A DNA stretch of 64,000 bases, from assembly GCA_963849325.1 (NCBI GenBank), contig CAWKHF010000007.1, positions 256,001 through 320,000 on the forward strand. The letters are read 5' to 3'. The notes under the pieces are model-generated. The model saw only the letters and a list, made by a program, of their open reading frames with translations. It was not told where the DNA came from and did not search any database. Positions 29,708 to 37,486 of the stretch are shown here, piece after piece. Positions within the stretch are counted from its first letter, which is position 1, and every line of letters starts with the position of its first letter. This DNA is from an uncultured Planctomycetota bacterium. Lineage in GTDB: Bacteria; Planctomycetota; Planctomycetia; Gemmatales; Gemmataceae. The translations under genes and the position numbers were made by a program.

Positions 29708-31246
29708 CCATCGAATGGGCTCCCTCGAAGATCACGCCCAACGCCTCGGTCATGGCCCCTCCATACGGAGCTGGATGCTCCTTCCAGGCACGAGCAGCCG
29801 ATGCGGAAGGTGGCCCACCGAGGAGAGGTTGCCGACTTCGTCGTCGCTTCCTCCTTTCGTTGCTCAACTCCTCTTGCCCACGCCCGCGTCCAGCGACACC
29901 GTGCTGTCGGCCGTCAGACTTCGATATAACCGCGCCCGGTCGAAGGGCTCGCCGCGGCCGCCGACCCGGTACAACGCCAACGCCAACTTACGCATCACAC
30001 CGGCCAACGCCGGCTTGGCAGCGCCACGCCGTTGCGCCTTTTGCCGCACATACCAACTGCGCACCGGCTCCTGCCGCACCCAACGCAACGCCGCCAGGTA
30101 CAGCCAACGCCGTACCACGCTGGGACCCCGCTTGCTGATCTTGAGCTGGCCCTGCCAGCGACCACTGCTGCGTTCCTTCAGGTTCAGCCCCATCGCCTTG
30201 CGATAGGCCGACCCACAGTGGTAGTCCTGGGGATTGCCCAACGCCACCCACAGCACACACGCCGTCGCCGGGCCGACCACTGCGGCCATCGCCTGGATGA
30301 CCGGCTGCGTTGCCGCCAGTTGCCGCCGCCGCCGGGCCTGCCGATGCTGCTGCAGCCCCTCTTGCACCTGTTGGGCATAACGACGCAGGCGTTCCTCGTC
30401 CCAGCGTCCGACCGGCACGCCCGCCGTCTGCCGGGCGCTGGCTGCCAGCGCCTCGGCCTTGTCCCGGCGCAACAGACCCTTGCCCCAACGGTACAGCCGG
30501 TCTACCGCCTGGATGTCCTCCGCCAAGCCGCCTGGCCCGCCGTAGCGTAGCAGGCAGCGTCGCAGCACCCCGGAGGTCAAGGGCAACAACGCGGTCGCCT
30601 CGGGCCAATGCCGGCTCCAGAGCGCTTCCAGCCGGCCGTACCACAACTGCGTCTGCCGCCTTGGGCCTTCGAGCCACTCGACTTGGTAAGCCAGTTCCTG
30701 TTCGGCCTCGCTGGGCAGGACCAGCGGCCAGGGCCAACTGCGTCCCTGAGCGGCCAATTCGGCCACGATGGCGGCGTCCTTGCCGTCGTGCTGGGACGGG
30801 ACGCCGTCGAAGATCTCGGCGTAATCGGCGGCGGCCTTGGGGCTGATCCGATGCACCATCAAGCCGGCATGCTGGAGAGCGTGGCGAAGGGCATCGCCGT
30901 AGGTGCCGGTCGGCTCCAGGGCGACGACGAGCTGGCGGCCCTGGCCGAGGCGCTGCCGGGCCTGGGTGAGGCAGGGGAGGTCGGCGGGGTTGCGGCAGCG
31001 CCAGGGGCGCTCGAAGTCGTGGTTGTCCCAGCGGAGCACGCAGAGGATGGAGTCCTTGCCGACATCGAGGCCGGCGTGGACGAGCGTCTCGTGCCGCGGG
31101 TGCAGCAGGCGATCCAGGTAGATCGGATTGACAGCGACGGCGCGGTATGCTGTGCTCTTCATGGGGATGACCTTTTGTACGTGGACTGGTGATCGTAGCT
31201 GACACCACAATAAACCACTTTCGAGGCATCCCCATTCTTATAGCCC
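29708..31246 (-). mobile_element. IS110-family element B of IS1111 type
   Basis: Sub-terminal IRs GAATGGGCTCCCTCGAAG (29713-29730) / CTTTCGAGGCATCCCCATTC (31218-31237); CCA at both junctions; ~150-nt downstream non-coding region. Confidence 0.82.
29864..31162 (-). CDS. IS110/IS1111 recombinase
   Basis: GLDVGK, ALEPTG, HDGKDA (DEDD), ERSSG, ISKRG, VMRKL. Confidence 0.92.
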   Translation of the reverse strand: MKSTAYRAVAVNPIYLDRLLHPRHETLVHAGLDVGKDSILCVLRWDNHDFERPWRCRNPADLPCLTQARQRLGQGRQLVVALEPTGTYGDALRHALQHAGLMVHRISPKAAADYAEIFDGVPSQHDGKDAAIVAELAAQGRSWPWPLVLPSEAEQELAYQVEWLEGPRRQTQLWYGRLEALWSRHWPEATALLPLTSGVLRRCLLRYGGPGGLAEDIQAVDRLYRWGKGLLRRDKAEALAASARQTAGVPVGRWDEERLRRYAQQVQEGLQQHRQARRRRQLAATQPVIQAMAAVVGPATACVLWVALGNPQDYHCGSAYRKAMGLNLKERSSGRWQGQLKISKRGPSVVRRWLYLAALRWVRQEPVRSWYVRQKAQRRGAAKPALAGVMRKLALALYRVGGRGEPFDRARLYRSLTADSTVSLDAGVGKRS

Positions 31247-31260
31247 ACTGAGCTTGGTTG

Positions 31261-31460
31261 GTCGGCGAGTTCCTCGGCGAGGTTGACGGCTCCGGTGCAG
31301 GCTTCCCGTGCGGCGCCGTGGACGGTGCCGAGTCGTTGGATGGCTTGGTTGATGGCGTCGGCGGAGTCGGGCACGGCGCGGTTGCAGAGGACTTTGCCGG
31401 TGTTGTCCAGGACGCAGAGTTGGACGGCGTGTTGGGAGTAGTCCAGTCCGACGACTCGCC
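31261..31460 (-). pseudogene. N-terminal fragment of a third IS110 recombinase
   Basis: VVGLDYSQHAVQLCVLDNTG...EACTGAVNLAEEL. Confidence 0.7.
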
Positions 31461-31464
31461 TTCC

Positions 31465-31713
31465 CAACGGCTCACGCCGGTGGATGACCGCGAACAACGC
31501 CCGCAACGACTCACGCAAGCGTTCCCCAGAAGCACGCGCCGGAGTGTCCGGCAAGGTCGTCAGGAACTTCACGTCCCCGATCAGGGGGGCCAGGCAGAAC
31601 GGCATCACGACGCCGCACGCACGCAGGTAACGCCGGTAGGCCGAGAAGTAGTCGCAACCCAGCACGCCGTGGAACTCCTTCCCCAACCCCTCCAGCAGCA
31701 CGTCGGCCCGATC
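31465..31713 (-). pseudogene. Internal fragment of an IS66-family transposase
   Basis: VLLEGLGKEFHGVLGCDYFSAY...FCLAPLIGDVKFL. Confidence 0.7.
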
Positions 31714-31791
31714 AGCGAAGTGCTCATGCGGTCGTCCTTTCCACCGAAGAGGCCGCTTGCGGCCGGGCGCTCGTGCCCGGCCGCAAGCGGA

Positions 31792-32943
31792 TTAGTCCCC
31801 TCCGTGTACCGCATCCTCCTTCGCGAACGGATACGTGGCGAACAGCACGTCACCCAGTCCCAGGTAGGGGTCGTCGAGGTCGGCGTGCAGCACGTCCTTG
31901 TAGATGGGGCGAGTCACCTTCTCCGGCCGCACCAATCCCGCGGTGGCGAGCAGTTCATGGATCTGACGGCGGCGCGTGCGCTCGTTGAGTCGGGTATCTT
32001 CTTCTAGCTCTTTCCAGCGGGCCACATCCTCCGCGGCGGTCAGGACCGGTTTCGCCTGCGTCCGCGGCACAACCGAAATCGGCGTTGGTAGGAGGGTCCG
32101 TTCAATCGGCTTCTCGATCACCCCCTTGGTAATGGGCACCATCTTTTGGTCGGCGGCCGCCTGACCCGGCTTGGCCATTTTCTTCAAAGCTTGTGCCTGG
32201 CCGCGATGATAAGCGCGGACCAGCAGGTCTCGATTCGCCTCGGAGCTGGCCTGAGCGTTTTTAGCGACCGCACAAAGAAGGCTGAGTTGAGCCACATATC
32301 CGGACTCGGTGTATATCCCCGGCAGTGCATCCACCACCAAACCGTCGGGAGTGCAGACCGAGCTGAGGATGTTGCCGTGGAGGGTGCGGGTCAGCACCTT
32401 GCCGTTGCCGAAGTCGATCCGCACGATCGGCACCGGACGCACGCTCTCCCACACAGGCTCGAACGATTGGTTGATGAAGTCGGCGACGCGGTCCTGGGAG
32501 AACAACACGGTTCTCGCGAGACGAGCGTTCGTTCAGCAGAAGCGGTCGTCGAGCCGGCCCATCATCTGAAAGAGCAGCACGGGCTTGCCCGACTTCTTCG
32601 CCGCCGCGCAGGCCGTGTCCAAATCCTTGTGCCAGCGGACCTTGCCGGGCTGGACCTTGGGGTTGACGAACGTATCACCGGGAGGGGTCGCGGCCGGGAC
32701 GGTTCGCGCGGCCAACACCTTCTCGGTGGGGACTTCGATGACGTATTTGCTGAAATCGCGTATGTCGATGACGTTCGGGACGTTCGGTGCCGGTGCGGCC
32801 ACGAGGTTCATGGCCGGCTGCGGGGTGGGCGGCTTCGGGGGTCTGTCGCCGGCGAAGGCACGCGCCAGGAGTAGGACGGTCAGTCCGACCACTCCGACTT
32901 CCACGATACACGAGAGACGATGGCGCCGTAGGGTTCGTTTCAT
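31792..32943 (-). CDS. Putative selenoprotein N-like, thioredoxin-fold exported protein with in-frame TGA (32533-32535)
   Basis: W...A...A...GKPVLLF..GRLDDRFC-TGA-TNARLARTVLFS..V...INQSF..VW; both halves are in one frame. Confidence 0.75.
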
Positions 32944-33269
32944 GACAAGAATCCTCCAGTACGGGATTAACCGGCTCGGAAGGCGAGCAACGGGTTTCCG
33001 GGAGGATTCTACCCGCGGACGTGGGAGGATTGCGCAACAAGTTGGTAACGAGTGAAGGGAGGTCTCGGCGCTACTGGATGCGGAGGCTGCGGACGTACTC
33101 GGCCTCGCGGGCGATCTCCCCGTCGGAGAGGCCATCTTGCCGCTGGTCATGTCCAGGGCCATGACGTCGATCAGGCCGTTGCTGCCGACGCCGCCGCGCA
33201 CCTGCACCGGCGCGGCTCGGCCCGGCTGTAATCTCTCCGCGCGGTACAGCCCCGCAAGATCGCGCAAGC

Positions 33270-33612
33270 TGTCCGCATAGCACGGATTCGCCGTCGAAGG
33301 AGACGAACGGATCGGTGATGGTGTCATCGCCGGCGGCGACGAGGACTTCCTCGCGGCCGTTGGGATGGAGCAACATCAGGTCCGAACCCGGCTCCCCTCG
33401 CAGCGGGCTGAACACTTCCGTCCAGGCGATTTGCTTGTCGTCGCCCCGGCGCGGTGCCCGCACGTAGACGAGGTCGTAGTCGTAGCGAATGGATTGGTCG
33501 GCCGCGAGGGGCGGCGGGTTGACGTTGTACACGCGGTTTTTTTGTCCGGCCCGGCCGAAACCATCGCCGACAGAAGGGCCATCACCAGGATGGCAAAAGC
33601 GACTCGCTTCAC
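33270..33612 (-). pseudogene. Truncated N-terminal part of a secreted beta-propeller (TolB/HzsA-like) protein
   Basis: Signal peptide, then (frameshifted) YDLVYVRAPR...GSDLMLLHPNG.EEVLV...DPFVSFDG, ending abruptly. Confidence 0.5.
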
Positions 33613-33639: not shown

Positions 33640-34995
33640 TTACTTGTTTGCAACCGCTCCAGGTAGCGCGGCAACCGGCACGGGAACCAGCGATTGGAGG
33701 AGTTTACCGCTGGGCAATTCGTAAAGCTGAACGAGTCCGCTCTTGCTACCCAGGGCGAGGCGCGAGCCGTTGGCATTGAGCGATACCGCGTACACCGGGG
33801 CGGGCGCCTTGCTGAGGAGGGCGACGCGCTGACGGTTGGCGATCTGGTAGACACGAACTTCGCCGAAATGGCCGGCGACGGCCACGAGCTTGCGATCGCC
33901 GCTGACGCCGAGGGCGTGGACCTCGCCCGGTTGCGCCTCGAAGTTGCCGGCATATTGATTGCGCGGGACGCCGCTCAGAGCGGTCTTCAAGGTGTAGGCG
34001 CTGAGGGTCCGCGCCCGGCCGGCCGAGATCGCATAGAGATCGTTGGCGGCCACGGCGCCGATCAACTCCGGCGAACTGTCGATGGTCCGCAGCAACTCGC
34101 CGGTCTGGGCGCTGGCGACCTTGGTGGCCTTGTCGCGTCCACCGCTGACGAGCATCTTGCCGTCGGGCGTGTAGGCGACCGACAACACCCAATCGCTGTG
34201 CAGCTCGAAACGGCGGAGCGGCTGCTTCGGGTCAACGGGGACGACGTACACGGCGCCGTCGGCGCCGCCCAGGGCGATCGCTTGGCCGTCGGGAGCGAAG
34301 TTGCCGCGAAAGAGCGTGTCCTTGCCGATACGGCGAGCGGAGACGAGTCGGCCGTCCGCCGGGTCGAGGAAGCGAGCCTCGCCATACTGACCGGGCGTGC
34401 CGCCGACGGCCGCCAACAGCTTGCCGTCCGGGCTGAACTCGACGTGTGTGACCAGGTCGCTGGCCGTCGGCACGCGCGCGGTCGGCGCCGTTCCCTCCAC
34501 GTCCACCAGGACGACCTCACTGCGGCAAGCCGCCGCCAGGCGCTTGCCGTCGCCCGACAGCGCCACGCTCGTGACCGCCGGCGCGAACGTGTACGTCTTG
34601 GGAGCCTTGATTTCGATGCGCGGCTTGTCGGCCGGCGAGTCATCGGGAGCGCCGACCGCGATCCACTTGCGGAGTATCTCGATCTTTTGAGGCGACAAAG
34701 GTGGCTGCTTCTGCGGCATGGCCGGCTCGGGGCCGCTGATGGCCTCGATCAGCAGGCTATCCTCGGGCTTGCCGGCCTGGAACAACGGGCCGCTGCGGCC
34801 ACCCTTGCGCATGTCGGCGACCGTGTCCAGGCTCAACTTGCCCTTTGGCTTGGCCGAGGAGTGACAACCCCAGCAGTGTCGTTTCAAGATCGGCTGCACC
34901 TCGTTGCGATAGCTGACCGCCGGCTCGGCGCTCCGCGCCGGCAGGACCATCCCGAGAAACAGACTTGCAGTTATCAGCATCGAGCGGCGTCGCAT
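33640..34995 (-). CDS. Planctomycete cytochrome c domain plus WD40 protein
   Basis: Signal peptide, VQPILKRHCWGCH, MPQK, WD40 repeats. Confidence 0.88.
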   Translation of the reverse strand: MRRRSMLITASLFLGMVLPARSAEPAVSYRNEVQPILKRHCWGCHSSAKPKGKLSLDTVADMRKGGRSGPLFQAGKPEDSLLIEAISGPEPAMPQKQPPLSPQKIEILRKWIAVGAPDDSPADKPRIEIKAPKTYTFAPAVTSVALSGDGKRLAAACRSEVVLVDVEGTAPTARVPTASDLVTHVEFSPDGKLLAAVGGTPGQYGEARFLDPADGRLVSARRIGKDTLFRGNFAPDGQAIALGGADGAVYVVPVDPKQPLRRFELHSDWVLSVAYTPDGKMLVSGGRDKATKVASAQTGELLRTIDSSPELIGAVAANDLYAISAGRARTLSAYTLKTALSGVPRNQYAGNFEAQPGEVHALGVSGDRKLVAVAGHFGEVRVYQIANRQRVALLSKAPAPVYAVSLNANGSRLALGSKSGLVQLYELPSGKLLQSLVPVPVAALPGAVANK

Positions 34996-35027
34996 GGCCC
35001 GGATCTCCAATCCTCGTGGCGGGACAG

Positions 35028-37486
35028 TTAATGGACCAGGAGGAAATCCTTGCTGTTGAGCAGCGCCCACATCAAATCCTGGGCCGCCTCCGTCCGTTTC
35101 GCGCTGCCATAGGTTTGGAACAACTGGAGCGACACCTGCTTTTCCTTGTCGCCGGGTCGGCGGCACAGTGACCACAGGTAGATCTGTTCGACCAACTGCT
35201 CGTCACTCGGTTTCGCCTTGAGGAGTTGAGCGAGCCGGCCGTTGGCGGCGTTGACGCGGTTGACGATGACGTTGCCGTTGAGGAAGTGCAGCGCTTGTAG
35301 CATGTTCGAGCCGTCGTCGCGTTCGCACTCGCACGCCTCGACGCGCTGCGGCTTGCCGAACAGGTTGAGGAATTCGCTCTGGACCTCGGCATCGGGCAGC
35401 TGCTTGGCCGTGAACCCCGCCGGTGCCCCGCCGAAACGCTCGGGGACGCCCGTGGCCTGTACCAGTGCGTCGAGCAGCGACTCGGCCGGCAGCCGGCGTG
35501 GCACCATCCGCGAAAAGTTCATGTCGTCCTCGGCATTGGTTTCGTTGGGGATGCTGCTGCGCTGGTAAGTGCGTGAGTTCACGATGGTCCGCATCAGATG
35601 GCGAACGTCGAACTGATGGGCGACGAAATCTTTCGTCAAGGCGTCGAGCAACTCGGGATTGACGGGCGGGTTCGTGGTGCGGATGTCGTCCACCGGGTCG
35701 ATGATGCCGCGATGGAAAAAATAGCTCCAGACGCGATTGGTCAGGCTGCGAGCGAAGAACGGATTGTCCGGCGACGTCAGCCACTTCGCATAGGCTTCGC
35801 GGCGATCGACGTTAAGAAGGTCGATGTCCGCGCCGCCGAGGAAACGCGGTTTTTGCAGCTGTCCCGAGCGCGGGTTGCGCGAATAGCCGGCCGTCTTGCG
35901 GACGAGGATGGCCCGCGCCGTGGGACGCTGGGGAGTCGCGGGTCGTCCTTGGCGGCGACCTGGTTGAAGAAACTGTGCAGACCGTAGTAATCGGCCTGCG
36001 TCCAGTTCTCGAAGGGGTGGGCATGGCAGCGGGCGCAGAGCATACGGATGCCACAGAAGACCTGCGTGACGCGCTGCAAGGAGTCGTCGGCGTCCTTGCT
36101 GATGGCAAAATACGCCGACGCCGGATCGTCGGCGACGCCGCCGCGGCTGGTCAGCAGGCGACGGGCGAACTCGTCCAACGGCATGTTCGAGGCGACGACG
36201 CCGCGCAGCCACTCGCGCAGGGCGTACACAGCCGGTTCGCTCAAATGCTTGCGGCTGTTCTGCAACAGGTCGCCCCATTTCAGCGACCATTGATCGACAA
36301 ACTCCGGCCGTCGAAACAGGACATCGATGACCTTCGTGCGCTTGTCCGATCCTTTATCGCTCAGAAAGGCGAGTACCTCGTCGGCAGTCGGCTGGACGCC
36401 GATTAGGTCGAGATGGACGCGGCGGAGGAAGGTGACGTCGTCGGCCAATTCGGATGGCTGAAGGCGCAGATCGTTGAGCTTGCGGGCGACGAACTTGTCG
36501 ATGAGATTGTCCTCGGGCGGCGGCGCCGGTTGGAAGCTGGGGTTGGGCTTGAGGACGATGAAATTGGCCGTGGCGAAGACGCGCTCGAAGCGAGCGGATA
36601 CCGCCGTCTCGCCCAGCTCGCGGGCGGTGACAAGTCCGGCTTCCTCGACGCTGGCGACGCGCTCGGTGTTGACGGTGTAGATGCCCAGGCGCGTCACGTC
36701 GCGGACGCTGCCGTCGCTGTAGCGGGCGAGCAGTTGCAACGGGTGCTGCATACCGGGTGAAAGGACCACTTTTTGCGGAACGATGTCGAGGCCGACCATC
36801 TTGACCGGGTCGTCGAGGTCGGCTCGCGCCCCTTCGCGGACCCAGCCGAACAGCGCTTGATGCAGCAGGCCGTCGCGCGGGAAGCGGATGCCTCCCTCGT
36901 GCGGCACGTCACCGAGCGGCTTGGTCAACAGCAGACTGGCCGGCGGGTTGTGGCGGTTGACGCGGCGCTCGAAAAACTCGTCGGTGAGCCATTGGTAATC
37001 GTCGGCCGGGTCGGCGCCGCGCAGCGACAGTTTGAAGCCGTTCTTGCCGAGAGAATAGCCGTGGCACGCCCCCTGATTGCAACCGCCCTTGGACAGGACC
37101 GGCATGACCTCGTGACGAAAACTGTAGGGCGGTTCCTTTCCGGGCAGCTGGACCTCGACCTTGACCACGGCCGACTTGCCCCCGGCCGCGATGGTGATGT
37201 CGGCACGGCCCGAGCCGATCGGCCGCGCCCAACCGTGTACATCGACCTTGACCACCTTGTCGTTGCTGGAGCGATAAGCCGCCTGCGCCGTCAGGTCGAG
37301 CGACAGGCCGTCGGCGGATCGGCCGGCGACAAGCAGGGAGTGCGGCCGGCGCGGATGCGTCAGCCGCAGCGACGCCGGTTGCACGCGCAGGTCGCCCACC
37401 GGAACAGGCGGCGCCGCGGCCTGGACCGCCATTGCCGCCAGCAGACTTCCGACGATCCCGTATCCACTTCGCATCGGCGTGAACAT
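35028..37486 (-). CDS. DUF1549/DUF1553 protein with Ig-like domains (frameshift near 35930)
   Basis: GCNQGACHG, FLRRVHLDLIG, CARCHAHP, NPFFARSLTNRVW, CECER, WALLNSKDF. Confidence 0.88.

Follow-up and report, generated by a model that had tools for sequence, protein, structure and literature searches.

A single planctomycete gene, treated by gene callers as two, very probably encodes an exported or membrane-anchored thioredoxin-fold oxidoreductase with a vicinal Cys136-Sec137 active site, and would belong to an uncatalogued family of planctomycete selenoproteins. The window (the whole stretch of 64,000 nucleotides that was analyzed) contains two minus-strand ORFs, 32533..33327 and 31792..32508, which share one frame and have a TGA (32535..32533) as their sole separator. 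When this TGA is read as selenocysteine (U), translation from ATG 32943 to TAA 31794..31792 yields 383 residues with a single U, at codon 137. The residues around it read GRLDDRFC-U-TNARLARTVLFS...INQSFEPVW, with a wider context of ..MMGRLDDRFC-U-TNARLARTVLFSQDRVADFINQSFEPVW.. and the motif F-C-U-T-N-A-R at Sec itself. An earlier, sequence-only reading of this DNA had described two ORFs of one frame split only by TGA 32533-32535, and a 383-residue protein with GRLDDRFC-U..INQSFEPVW. The first description agrees with the ORF listing, and on translation the coordinates, length, and motif of the second proved to be correct. The frame is open upstream of 32943 as far as 33327; the start at 32943 is favored because orthologues begin just before the hydrophobic N-terminus. 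Coordinates are collected in Table 1.

Table 1. Features of the putative selenoprotein gene and of two further thioredoxin-like (Trx-like) frames in the same genome (positions are those of the window unless a contig is named)
Feature	Position	Strand	Remarks
Whole putative selenoprotein gene	31792..32943	minus	ATG 32943; UGA-Sec codon 137; TAA 31794..31792; 383 residues; orthologous frames read through likewise
In-frame TGA read as selenocysteine (U137)	32533..32535	minus	TGA in 96/97 orthologous loci, TGT in 1
Cys136 codon, partner in vicinal Cys-Sec dyad	32536..32538	minus	Cys in 96/97 loci (TGC 86, TGT 10, ACG 1)
Apical hairpin GAGAAC-CGUGUU-GUUCUC, well-supported bSECIS	32498..32515	minus	nt +21..+38 from U of UGA; inside codons +7..+13 (R-T-V-L-F-S)
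N-terminal basic and hydrophobic segment, residues 1-31, ending ..ARAFA	32851..32943	minus	Model helix 7-29; comparable hydrophobic N-termini in orthologues
Predicted thioredoxin-fold domain, residues 97-233	32245..32655	minus	C136-U137 between strand 122-128 and helix 140-149
Conserved C-terminal helical domain, residues 300-383	31795..32046	minus	Alignment A1; helices 304-335 and 340-356 with pLDDT 86-95
Perfect 16-bp inverted repeat, 6-nt loop	31753..31790		2 nt past stop codon; possible transcript end
Trx-like frame ..F-T-U-N-N-A-E-A-L-R..	contig C6:177631-178647 (L150:632-1648)		In-frame TGA
Trx-like frame ..R-C-U-N-G-A-R-D-M-R..	contig C7:475650-476843 (L151:651-1844)		In-frame TGA

Orthologues were sought in 101 genomes of the taxonomic family to which the window belongs, Gemmataceae according to the source names of close homologues, where 17 loci were read through, and in metagenome contigs, which gave another 80. 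TGA occupies the aligned codon in 16 of the 17 genome loci and in all 80 metagenome loci (96/97). The sole exception, L037, has TGT (Cys); the sequence-only reading had proposed such an alignment to see whether TGA is kept or replaced by Cys. All 14 matches with E ≤ 1e-79 in the same-family genomes, the window's own included, carry one TGA. When 301 genomes of the phylum were searched, 41 had a match at E ≤ 1e-10, and the 37 rows with E ≤ 2.2e-30 divide into 25 with one TGA and 12 with none. In alignment A1, whose 16 sequences share 47-62% identity with the protein of the window, W104, H105, G129, L131, D132, F135, and C136 are invariant before U137, as are T138, N139, A140, R141, A143, and R144 after it. 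A TGA conserved in frame, with protein conservation on both sides, goes far beyond what chance would give and is therefore no lesion.

Protein databases hold the family mostly in pieces. A search with the protein gave 952 relatives, and among the best 120, 119 are C-terminal fragments (222-290 aa) starting directly downstream of the TGA. The exception is P0094, a protein of 363 aa with Ser in place of Sec. Likewise, most of the best 150 of the 2603 relatives from a profile search start at profile position 67-68, right after the UGA. The called start of the downstream ORF is a GUG codon within the loop of the hairpin described below. We inspected 22 proteins that span the Sec position (21 from the listed relatives, plus P0094). 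The dyad is C-C in P0126, P0127, and P0174, and, as judged from protein sequences, C-W in P0130 and C-S in P0094; P0145 and P0149 have no redox pair there. A large sister family carries ..S-C-A-N-S-R-F-F-R-T.., with its Cys aligned to Sec. Three Sec forms (L102, L139, and L143) have Thr in place of Cys136, giving a T-U dyad. Public sequencing runs were searched for the window's genome and none contains it (best word share 0.10). Contigs of relatives cross the place of the TGA, two of them from RNA library X7; their letters are those of the relatives, not of this strain, and no transcription is shown by them.

The codons that follow the UGA are constrained in a way that points to the RNA. In the codon table of the 97 loci, all synonymous codons are in use at +3 (Ala), +4 (Arg, CGN in 95/97), and +5 (Leu). 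Codons +6 to +11, by comparison, are fixed as GCG (96), AGA or AGG (97, never CGN), ACC (96), GUG (96), UUG (81) or CUG (16), and UUC (97); the constraint ends at codon +12, whose third base varies. Together, the fixed bases can pair as a 6-bp helix, GAGAAC-CGUGUU-GUUCUC, at nt +21..+38 (window 32515..32498). The hairpin has begun to decay in L037, the orthologue with TGT, which has GCA and, in the loop, AUG. In Sec forms and paralogues at a greater distance, a hairpin occurs in the same register spelled with other letters (GAGAGC/GCUCUC, GCGUAC/GUACGC, GCGAAC/GUUCGC, and GCGAGC/GCUCGC), and the GAGAGC/GCUCUC variant alters the encoded peptide to A-V-S-L-S.

Covariation was assessed on family rows, of which 105 were found after removal of 8 chance pattern matches outside the gene. 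Across 29 rows, hand-picked from the 105 to include every hairpin variant and thus enriched for variants, all 174 of 174 cells of the helix are paired, and three of the six pairs show compensatory changes (9 cells with both sides changed). None of 500 shuffles of these 29 rows matched the covariation score or the percentage paired, and pairing fell to 35-71% in a control in which the 3' arm was slid. Cys forms served as a second control. Of twelve stop-free loci that were retrieved, nine (TGC or TGT) matched the site pattern and were counted, with L154, L158, and L161 left out, and in these nine only 2-4 of the 6 pairs form. Three of the nine encode R-T-V-L-Y-A, a peptide that also occurs in two Sec forms, L148 and L149, and in both of these 6/6 pairs form. 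The hairpin thus goes with the UGA and not with the peptide, since Cys forms with the same peptide lack it. A conserved, covarying stem-loop at the distance of a bSECIS, apparently under selection at the RNA level, is well supported by these comparisons, as is its assignment as a bSECIS.

The bSECIS search proposed by the sequence-only reading thus found a conserved covarying hairpin, although an Rfam scan at E ≤ 10 returned only rows at chance level and no family that matches it. That reading had itself pointed to a TCTC-GC-GAGA hairpin 12-21 nt after the UGA. Such a palindrome, TCTCGCGAGA, does occur at nt +15..+24 (window 32521..32512), but it is not the conserved hairpin, with which it overlaps only in GAGA. 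We rejected it as a functional element: its loop would be 2 nt, and its 5' arm lies in the freely varying codons +4/+5.

The genome (14 contigs, 8.16 Mb) carries the machinery for Sec. On contig C12 are selD (387 bits) and an adjacent selB-selA pair (314 and 287 bits), and on contig C6 is tRNA-Sec (72 bits), which ARAGORN also calls as tRNA-SeC with anticodon TCA; all four exceed curated cut-offs. The window lies on contig C7, and the earlier remark that it holds no sel genes was right; the genome-wide check for the machinery that accompanied the remark has found selA, selB, selD, and tRNA-Sec all present. As assembled, selA is split over three frames (C12:1294158-1295519) and selB over two (C12:1295614-1297495). 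If these splits are real, the strain would be unable to make Sec. The essential gene rpoB is likewise split over several frames (C1:334967-338611), and for this reason all three splits more likely reflect pervasive indel errors of an assembly with a stated completeness of 84.7%.

Could the TGA be a true stop, dividing two genes or truncating one through a nonsense mutation or an assembly error? Gene callers do annotate two ORFs everywhere, the assembly is error-prone, and selA and selB look broken. Nevertheless, we regard this as highly improbable. The same in-frame TGA recurs in 96 of the 97 loci, from many samples, with invariant residues directly upstream, and the GUG called as the downstream start belongs to the loop of the hairpin. 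There are also a Cys orthologue and Cys-Cys relatives of full length, and the errors of the assembly are indels, not substitutions. There is also very little chance that the UGA is decoded as something other than Sec (Trp, Cys, or Gly), whether through a near-cognate tRNA or a reassigned genetic code. Trp is found there in one representative, P0130, an observation that comes from a protein sequence and could stem from a table 4 gene call. Against such decoding stand a dedicated hairpin that covaries only in UGA forms, the presence of tRNA-Sec, selA, selB, and selD, and the replacement of the codon by Cys in the orthologue; Sec and Cys are a classic replacement pair. Taken with the C-terminal fragments, these observations strongly support the central proposal of the sequence-only reading, that one selenoprotein gene has been split by gene callers.

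The domain structure of the protein was examined in an AlphaFold model for which 16 sequences had been aligned (mean pLDDT 62). An N-terminal helix (residues 7-29) is followed by a disordered Pro-rich linker, a thioredoxin fold (97-233), and a helical C-terminal region that is modeled with confidence. In the model, the redox residues are located at the N-terminus of helix alpha1 of the thioredoxin fold, in an active-site loop (133-142) whose pLDDT is < 50. Cys197 is at least 90% conserved. The hydrophobic N-terminal segment is probably either a cleaved export signal or a membrane anchor, which would place the redox domain outside the cytosol. In A1, the C-terminal domain has invariant D316, N320, E321, R325, D358, L361, and G362, and no fold match covers it (residues 300-383).

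The best fold matches are bacterial domains of the Thioredoxin_7/DsbD-gamma-like type. In sequence searches, PF13899 (Thioredoxin_7) scored 15.5 bits and PF03190 12.5 bits, and neither reached the Pfam gathering score of 27. NCBIfam gave matches only to the VPGUxxT types (E 4.2e-5 and 6.9e-4), far under the cut-offs. Five relatives searched against Pfam and NCBIfam returned nothing or the same weak match, and sequence searches of the PDB gave a best E of 0.69 with the protein and of 1 with profile A1. No SelenoN entry was among the PDB matches. An atlas search with the Cys-Cys relative P0126 retrieved only bacterial clusters named 'hypothetical protein'.

A working mechanism can be outlined from these features. 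SelB with Sec-tRNA(Sec) would bind the hairpin at nt +21..+38 and insert selenocysteine, and the N-terminal hydrophobic segment would carry the protein out of the cytoplasm. Sec137, placed at the N-terminus of helix alpha1 where thioredoxins have CxxC, may attack an oxidized substrate (a disulfide, sulfenate, or peroxide). It could then be resolved by Cys136 as a selenenylsulfide, comparable to the GCUG end of thioredoxin reductase; Cys197, which is nearly invariant, could take the same role. A vicinal Cys-Sec selenenylsulfide is not universal or obligatory in the family, because the three Sec forms noted above have Thr for Cys136. The C-terminal helical domain might confer specificity for a substrate or partner.

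Several known systems resemble this protein in part. The folds of the Thioredoxin_7, DsbD-gamma, DsbH, UAS, and AGR type (PDB 3f9u, 2ju5, 7tkv, 2dlx, and 3ph9) have CxxC or no redox motif where C-U is found here. They are also without the C-terminal domain, and the corresponding Pfam scores are under the gathering cut-offs. The VPGUxxT types 1 and 2 (NF041382 and NF041383), the sole NCBIfam matches, are also thioredoxin-like bacterial selenoproteins; they score 23.3 bits (type 2) against a cut-off of 275 and 19 bits against 350, and their Sec motif, V-P-G-U-x-x-T, differs from F-C-U-T-N-A-R both in sequence and in register. The GCUG end of animal thioredoxin reductase has adjacent Cys and Sec able to form a selenenylsulfide, as here, but there the dyad is on the flexible C-terminal tail of a flavoenzyme rather than at the N-terminus of helix alpha1. 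The Cys sister family (Pirellulaceae and others, e.g., P0258) has the same domain order and C-terminal motif, and its Cys aligns with Sec137. It differs in having Ser for Cys136, no UGA, and no hairpin, and it is also uncharacterized; proteins of the P0258 type are named 'hypothetical protein' or 'thioredoxin family protein'.

A resemblance to eukaryotic selenoprotein N (SelN) raises a further question, namely whether the family is truly homologous to SelN, the Cys-Sec thioredoxin-like domain of both having one origin, or is a convergent selenoprotein of thioredoxin fold. We consider that the planctomycete proteins are possibly prokaryotic homologues of SelN, a tentative view for which the odds are somewhat against, the likeness being one of motif and predicted topology as far as SelN is described. 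The longer motif that the sequence-only reading gives for eukaryotic SelN would add further matches in spacing.

SelN is described in passages of two articles (PMC12839072, PMC10650576) as a type II membrane protein of the ER, with a luminal EF-hand and a thioredoxin-like domain containing S-C-U-G. The same passages record a disease mutation of the human protein, Arg466Gln, four residues past Sec462, and in these a review likens SelN to the GCUG center of thioredoxin reductase. As far as those descriptions go, the two proteins have in common a vicinal Cys-Sec in a thioredoxin-like domain, an Arg at Sec+4 (97/97 loci here; Arg466 in human SelN, next to SCUG), and an N-terminal hydrophobic helix preceding that domain, as in the type II topology of SelN, with a membrane segment that is predicted here and a redox domain that here would likewise be non-cytosolic.

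The differences are also substantial. The flanks of the dyad are F-C-U-T in the planctomycete protein and S-C-U-G in SelN. SelN has an EF-hand, whereas the Pfam scan at E ≤ 1 found no EF-hand family in the planctomycete protein, which has the Pro-rich, low-confidence linker between the anchor and the Trx domain. It also has the additional conserved helical C-terminal domain of ~85 residues, which is not mentioned in the SelN passages cited above. The recoding signal is a bacterial in-frame SECIS here and a 3'-UTR SECIS in SelN. The best fold matches are bacterial, as were the hypothetical clusters that alone were returned by the atlas search with the Cys-Cys relative, and the motif downstream of Sec may be shared generally within the Thioredoxin_7/DsbD-gamma-like subgroup. 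Passages of a 2007 paper describe SelN as animal-specific, and those of a 2020 paper as present in a few algae. The main text of a 2026 review of the prokaryotic selenoproteome gives five families that prokaryotes have in common with eukaryotes, and a selenoprotein O-like protein is added in its Table 1; SelenoN is absent from both the five families and that table. A literature search found no paper on a bacterial SelenoN-like selenoprotein.

The surroundings of the gene were compared among relatives. The comparison covered 34 loci with 84 flanking ORFs; downstream there is an OmpR-type regulator in 5 loci, while phosphoglucomutase is adjacent in 4 and GidA in 3. The neighbors differ from lineage to lineage, which suggests lineage-specific synteny and no functional operon; they give no functional clue. 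Directly downstream in the window (29864-31701, minus strand), overlapping ORFs resemble, by eye, a transposase gene broken by frameshifts; in several relatives an OmpR-type regulator or phosphoglucomutase takes their place. In the upstream gene (33640-35175, minus strand), a CxxCH motif occurs together with WD40 repeats (Pfam WD40 on L022:3349-4149). Between this gene and the selenoprotein gene lies an ORF (33071-33532) that appears to be truncated. A consensus promoter and terminator scan at the selenoprotein gene was uninformative; the 16-bp inverted repeat is missing from the terminator results, having no T tract. In contigs of relatives, a joint between opposite strands falls at the place of this repeat (window 31753-31790).

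The superfamily is large. The profile search, run against 1.84 billion representatives, returned its 2603 relatives at E ≤ 0.001, and the source names of relatives are 'hypothetical protein' and, once, 'thioredoxin family protein'. The family is widespread in Planctomycetota, with Cys-containing sister forms. It is absent from Pfam and from NCBIfam release 20.0, and no entry in Table 1 (119 families) of the 2026 review fits it. It appears to be a genuine selenoprotein family, hitherto uncatalogued. The same genome has two further Trx-like frames with an in-frame TGA (Table 1), neither of which matches an NCBIfam model; in L151 the UGA is followed, at the distance seen in the window's gene, by a hairpin of 7 bp with a loop of 4 nt. 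In 50 of the 101 same-family genomes there is a match at E ≤ 0.001, and most of the weaker rows cover residues 100-255 with one TGA each, which points to an enlarged repertoire of Trx-like selenoproteins among these bacteria.

Were the relationship to SelN true, the Cys-Sec module and the Arg at Sec+4 that is mutated in SEPN1 myopathy would be ancient. The planctomycete protein would then be the first relative from bacteria of a human protein that is linked to disease and about whose structure and substrates little is known, and would offer a tractable bacterial model for SelenoN chemistry. For the planctomycetes themselves, hundreds of assemblies from soil and freshwater carry the gene wrongly annotated as a pair of hypothetical proteins, and its recognition would enlarge the bacterial selenoproteome by a large family. 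With a hairpin present in Sec forms and lacking in Cys forms that encode the same peptide, the family also offers a clean natural experiment on the evolution of the bSECIS.
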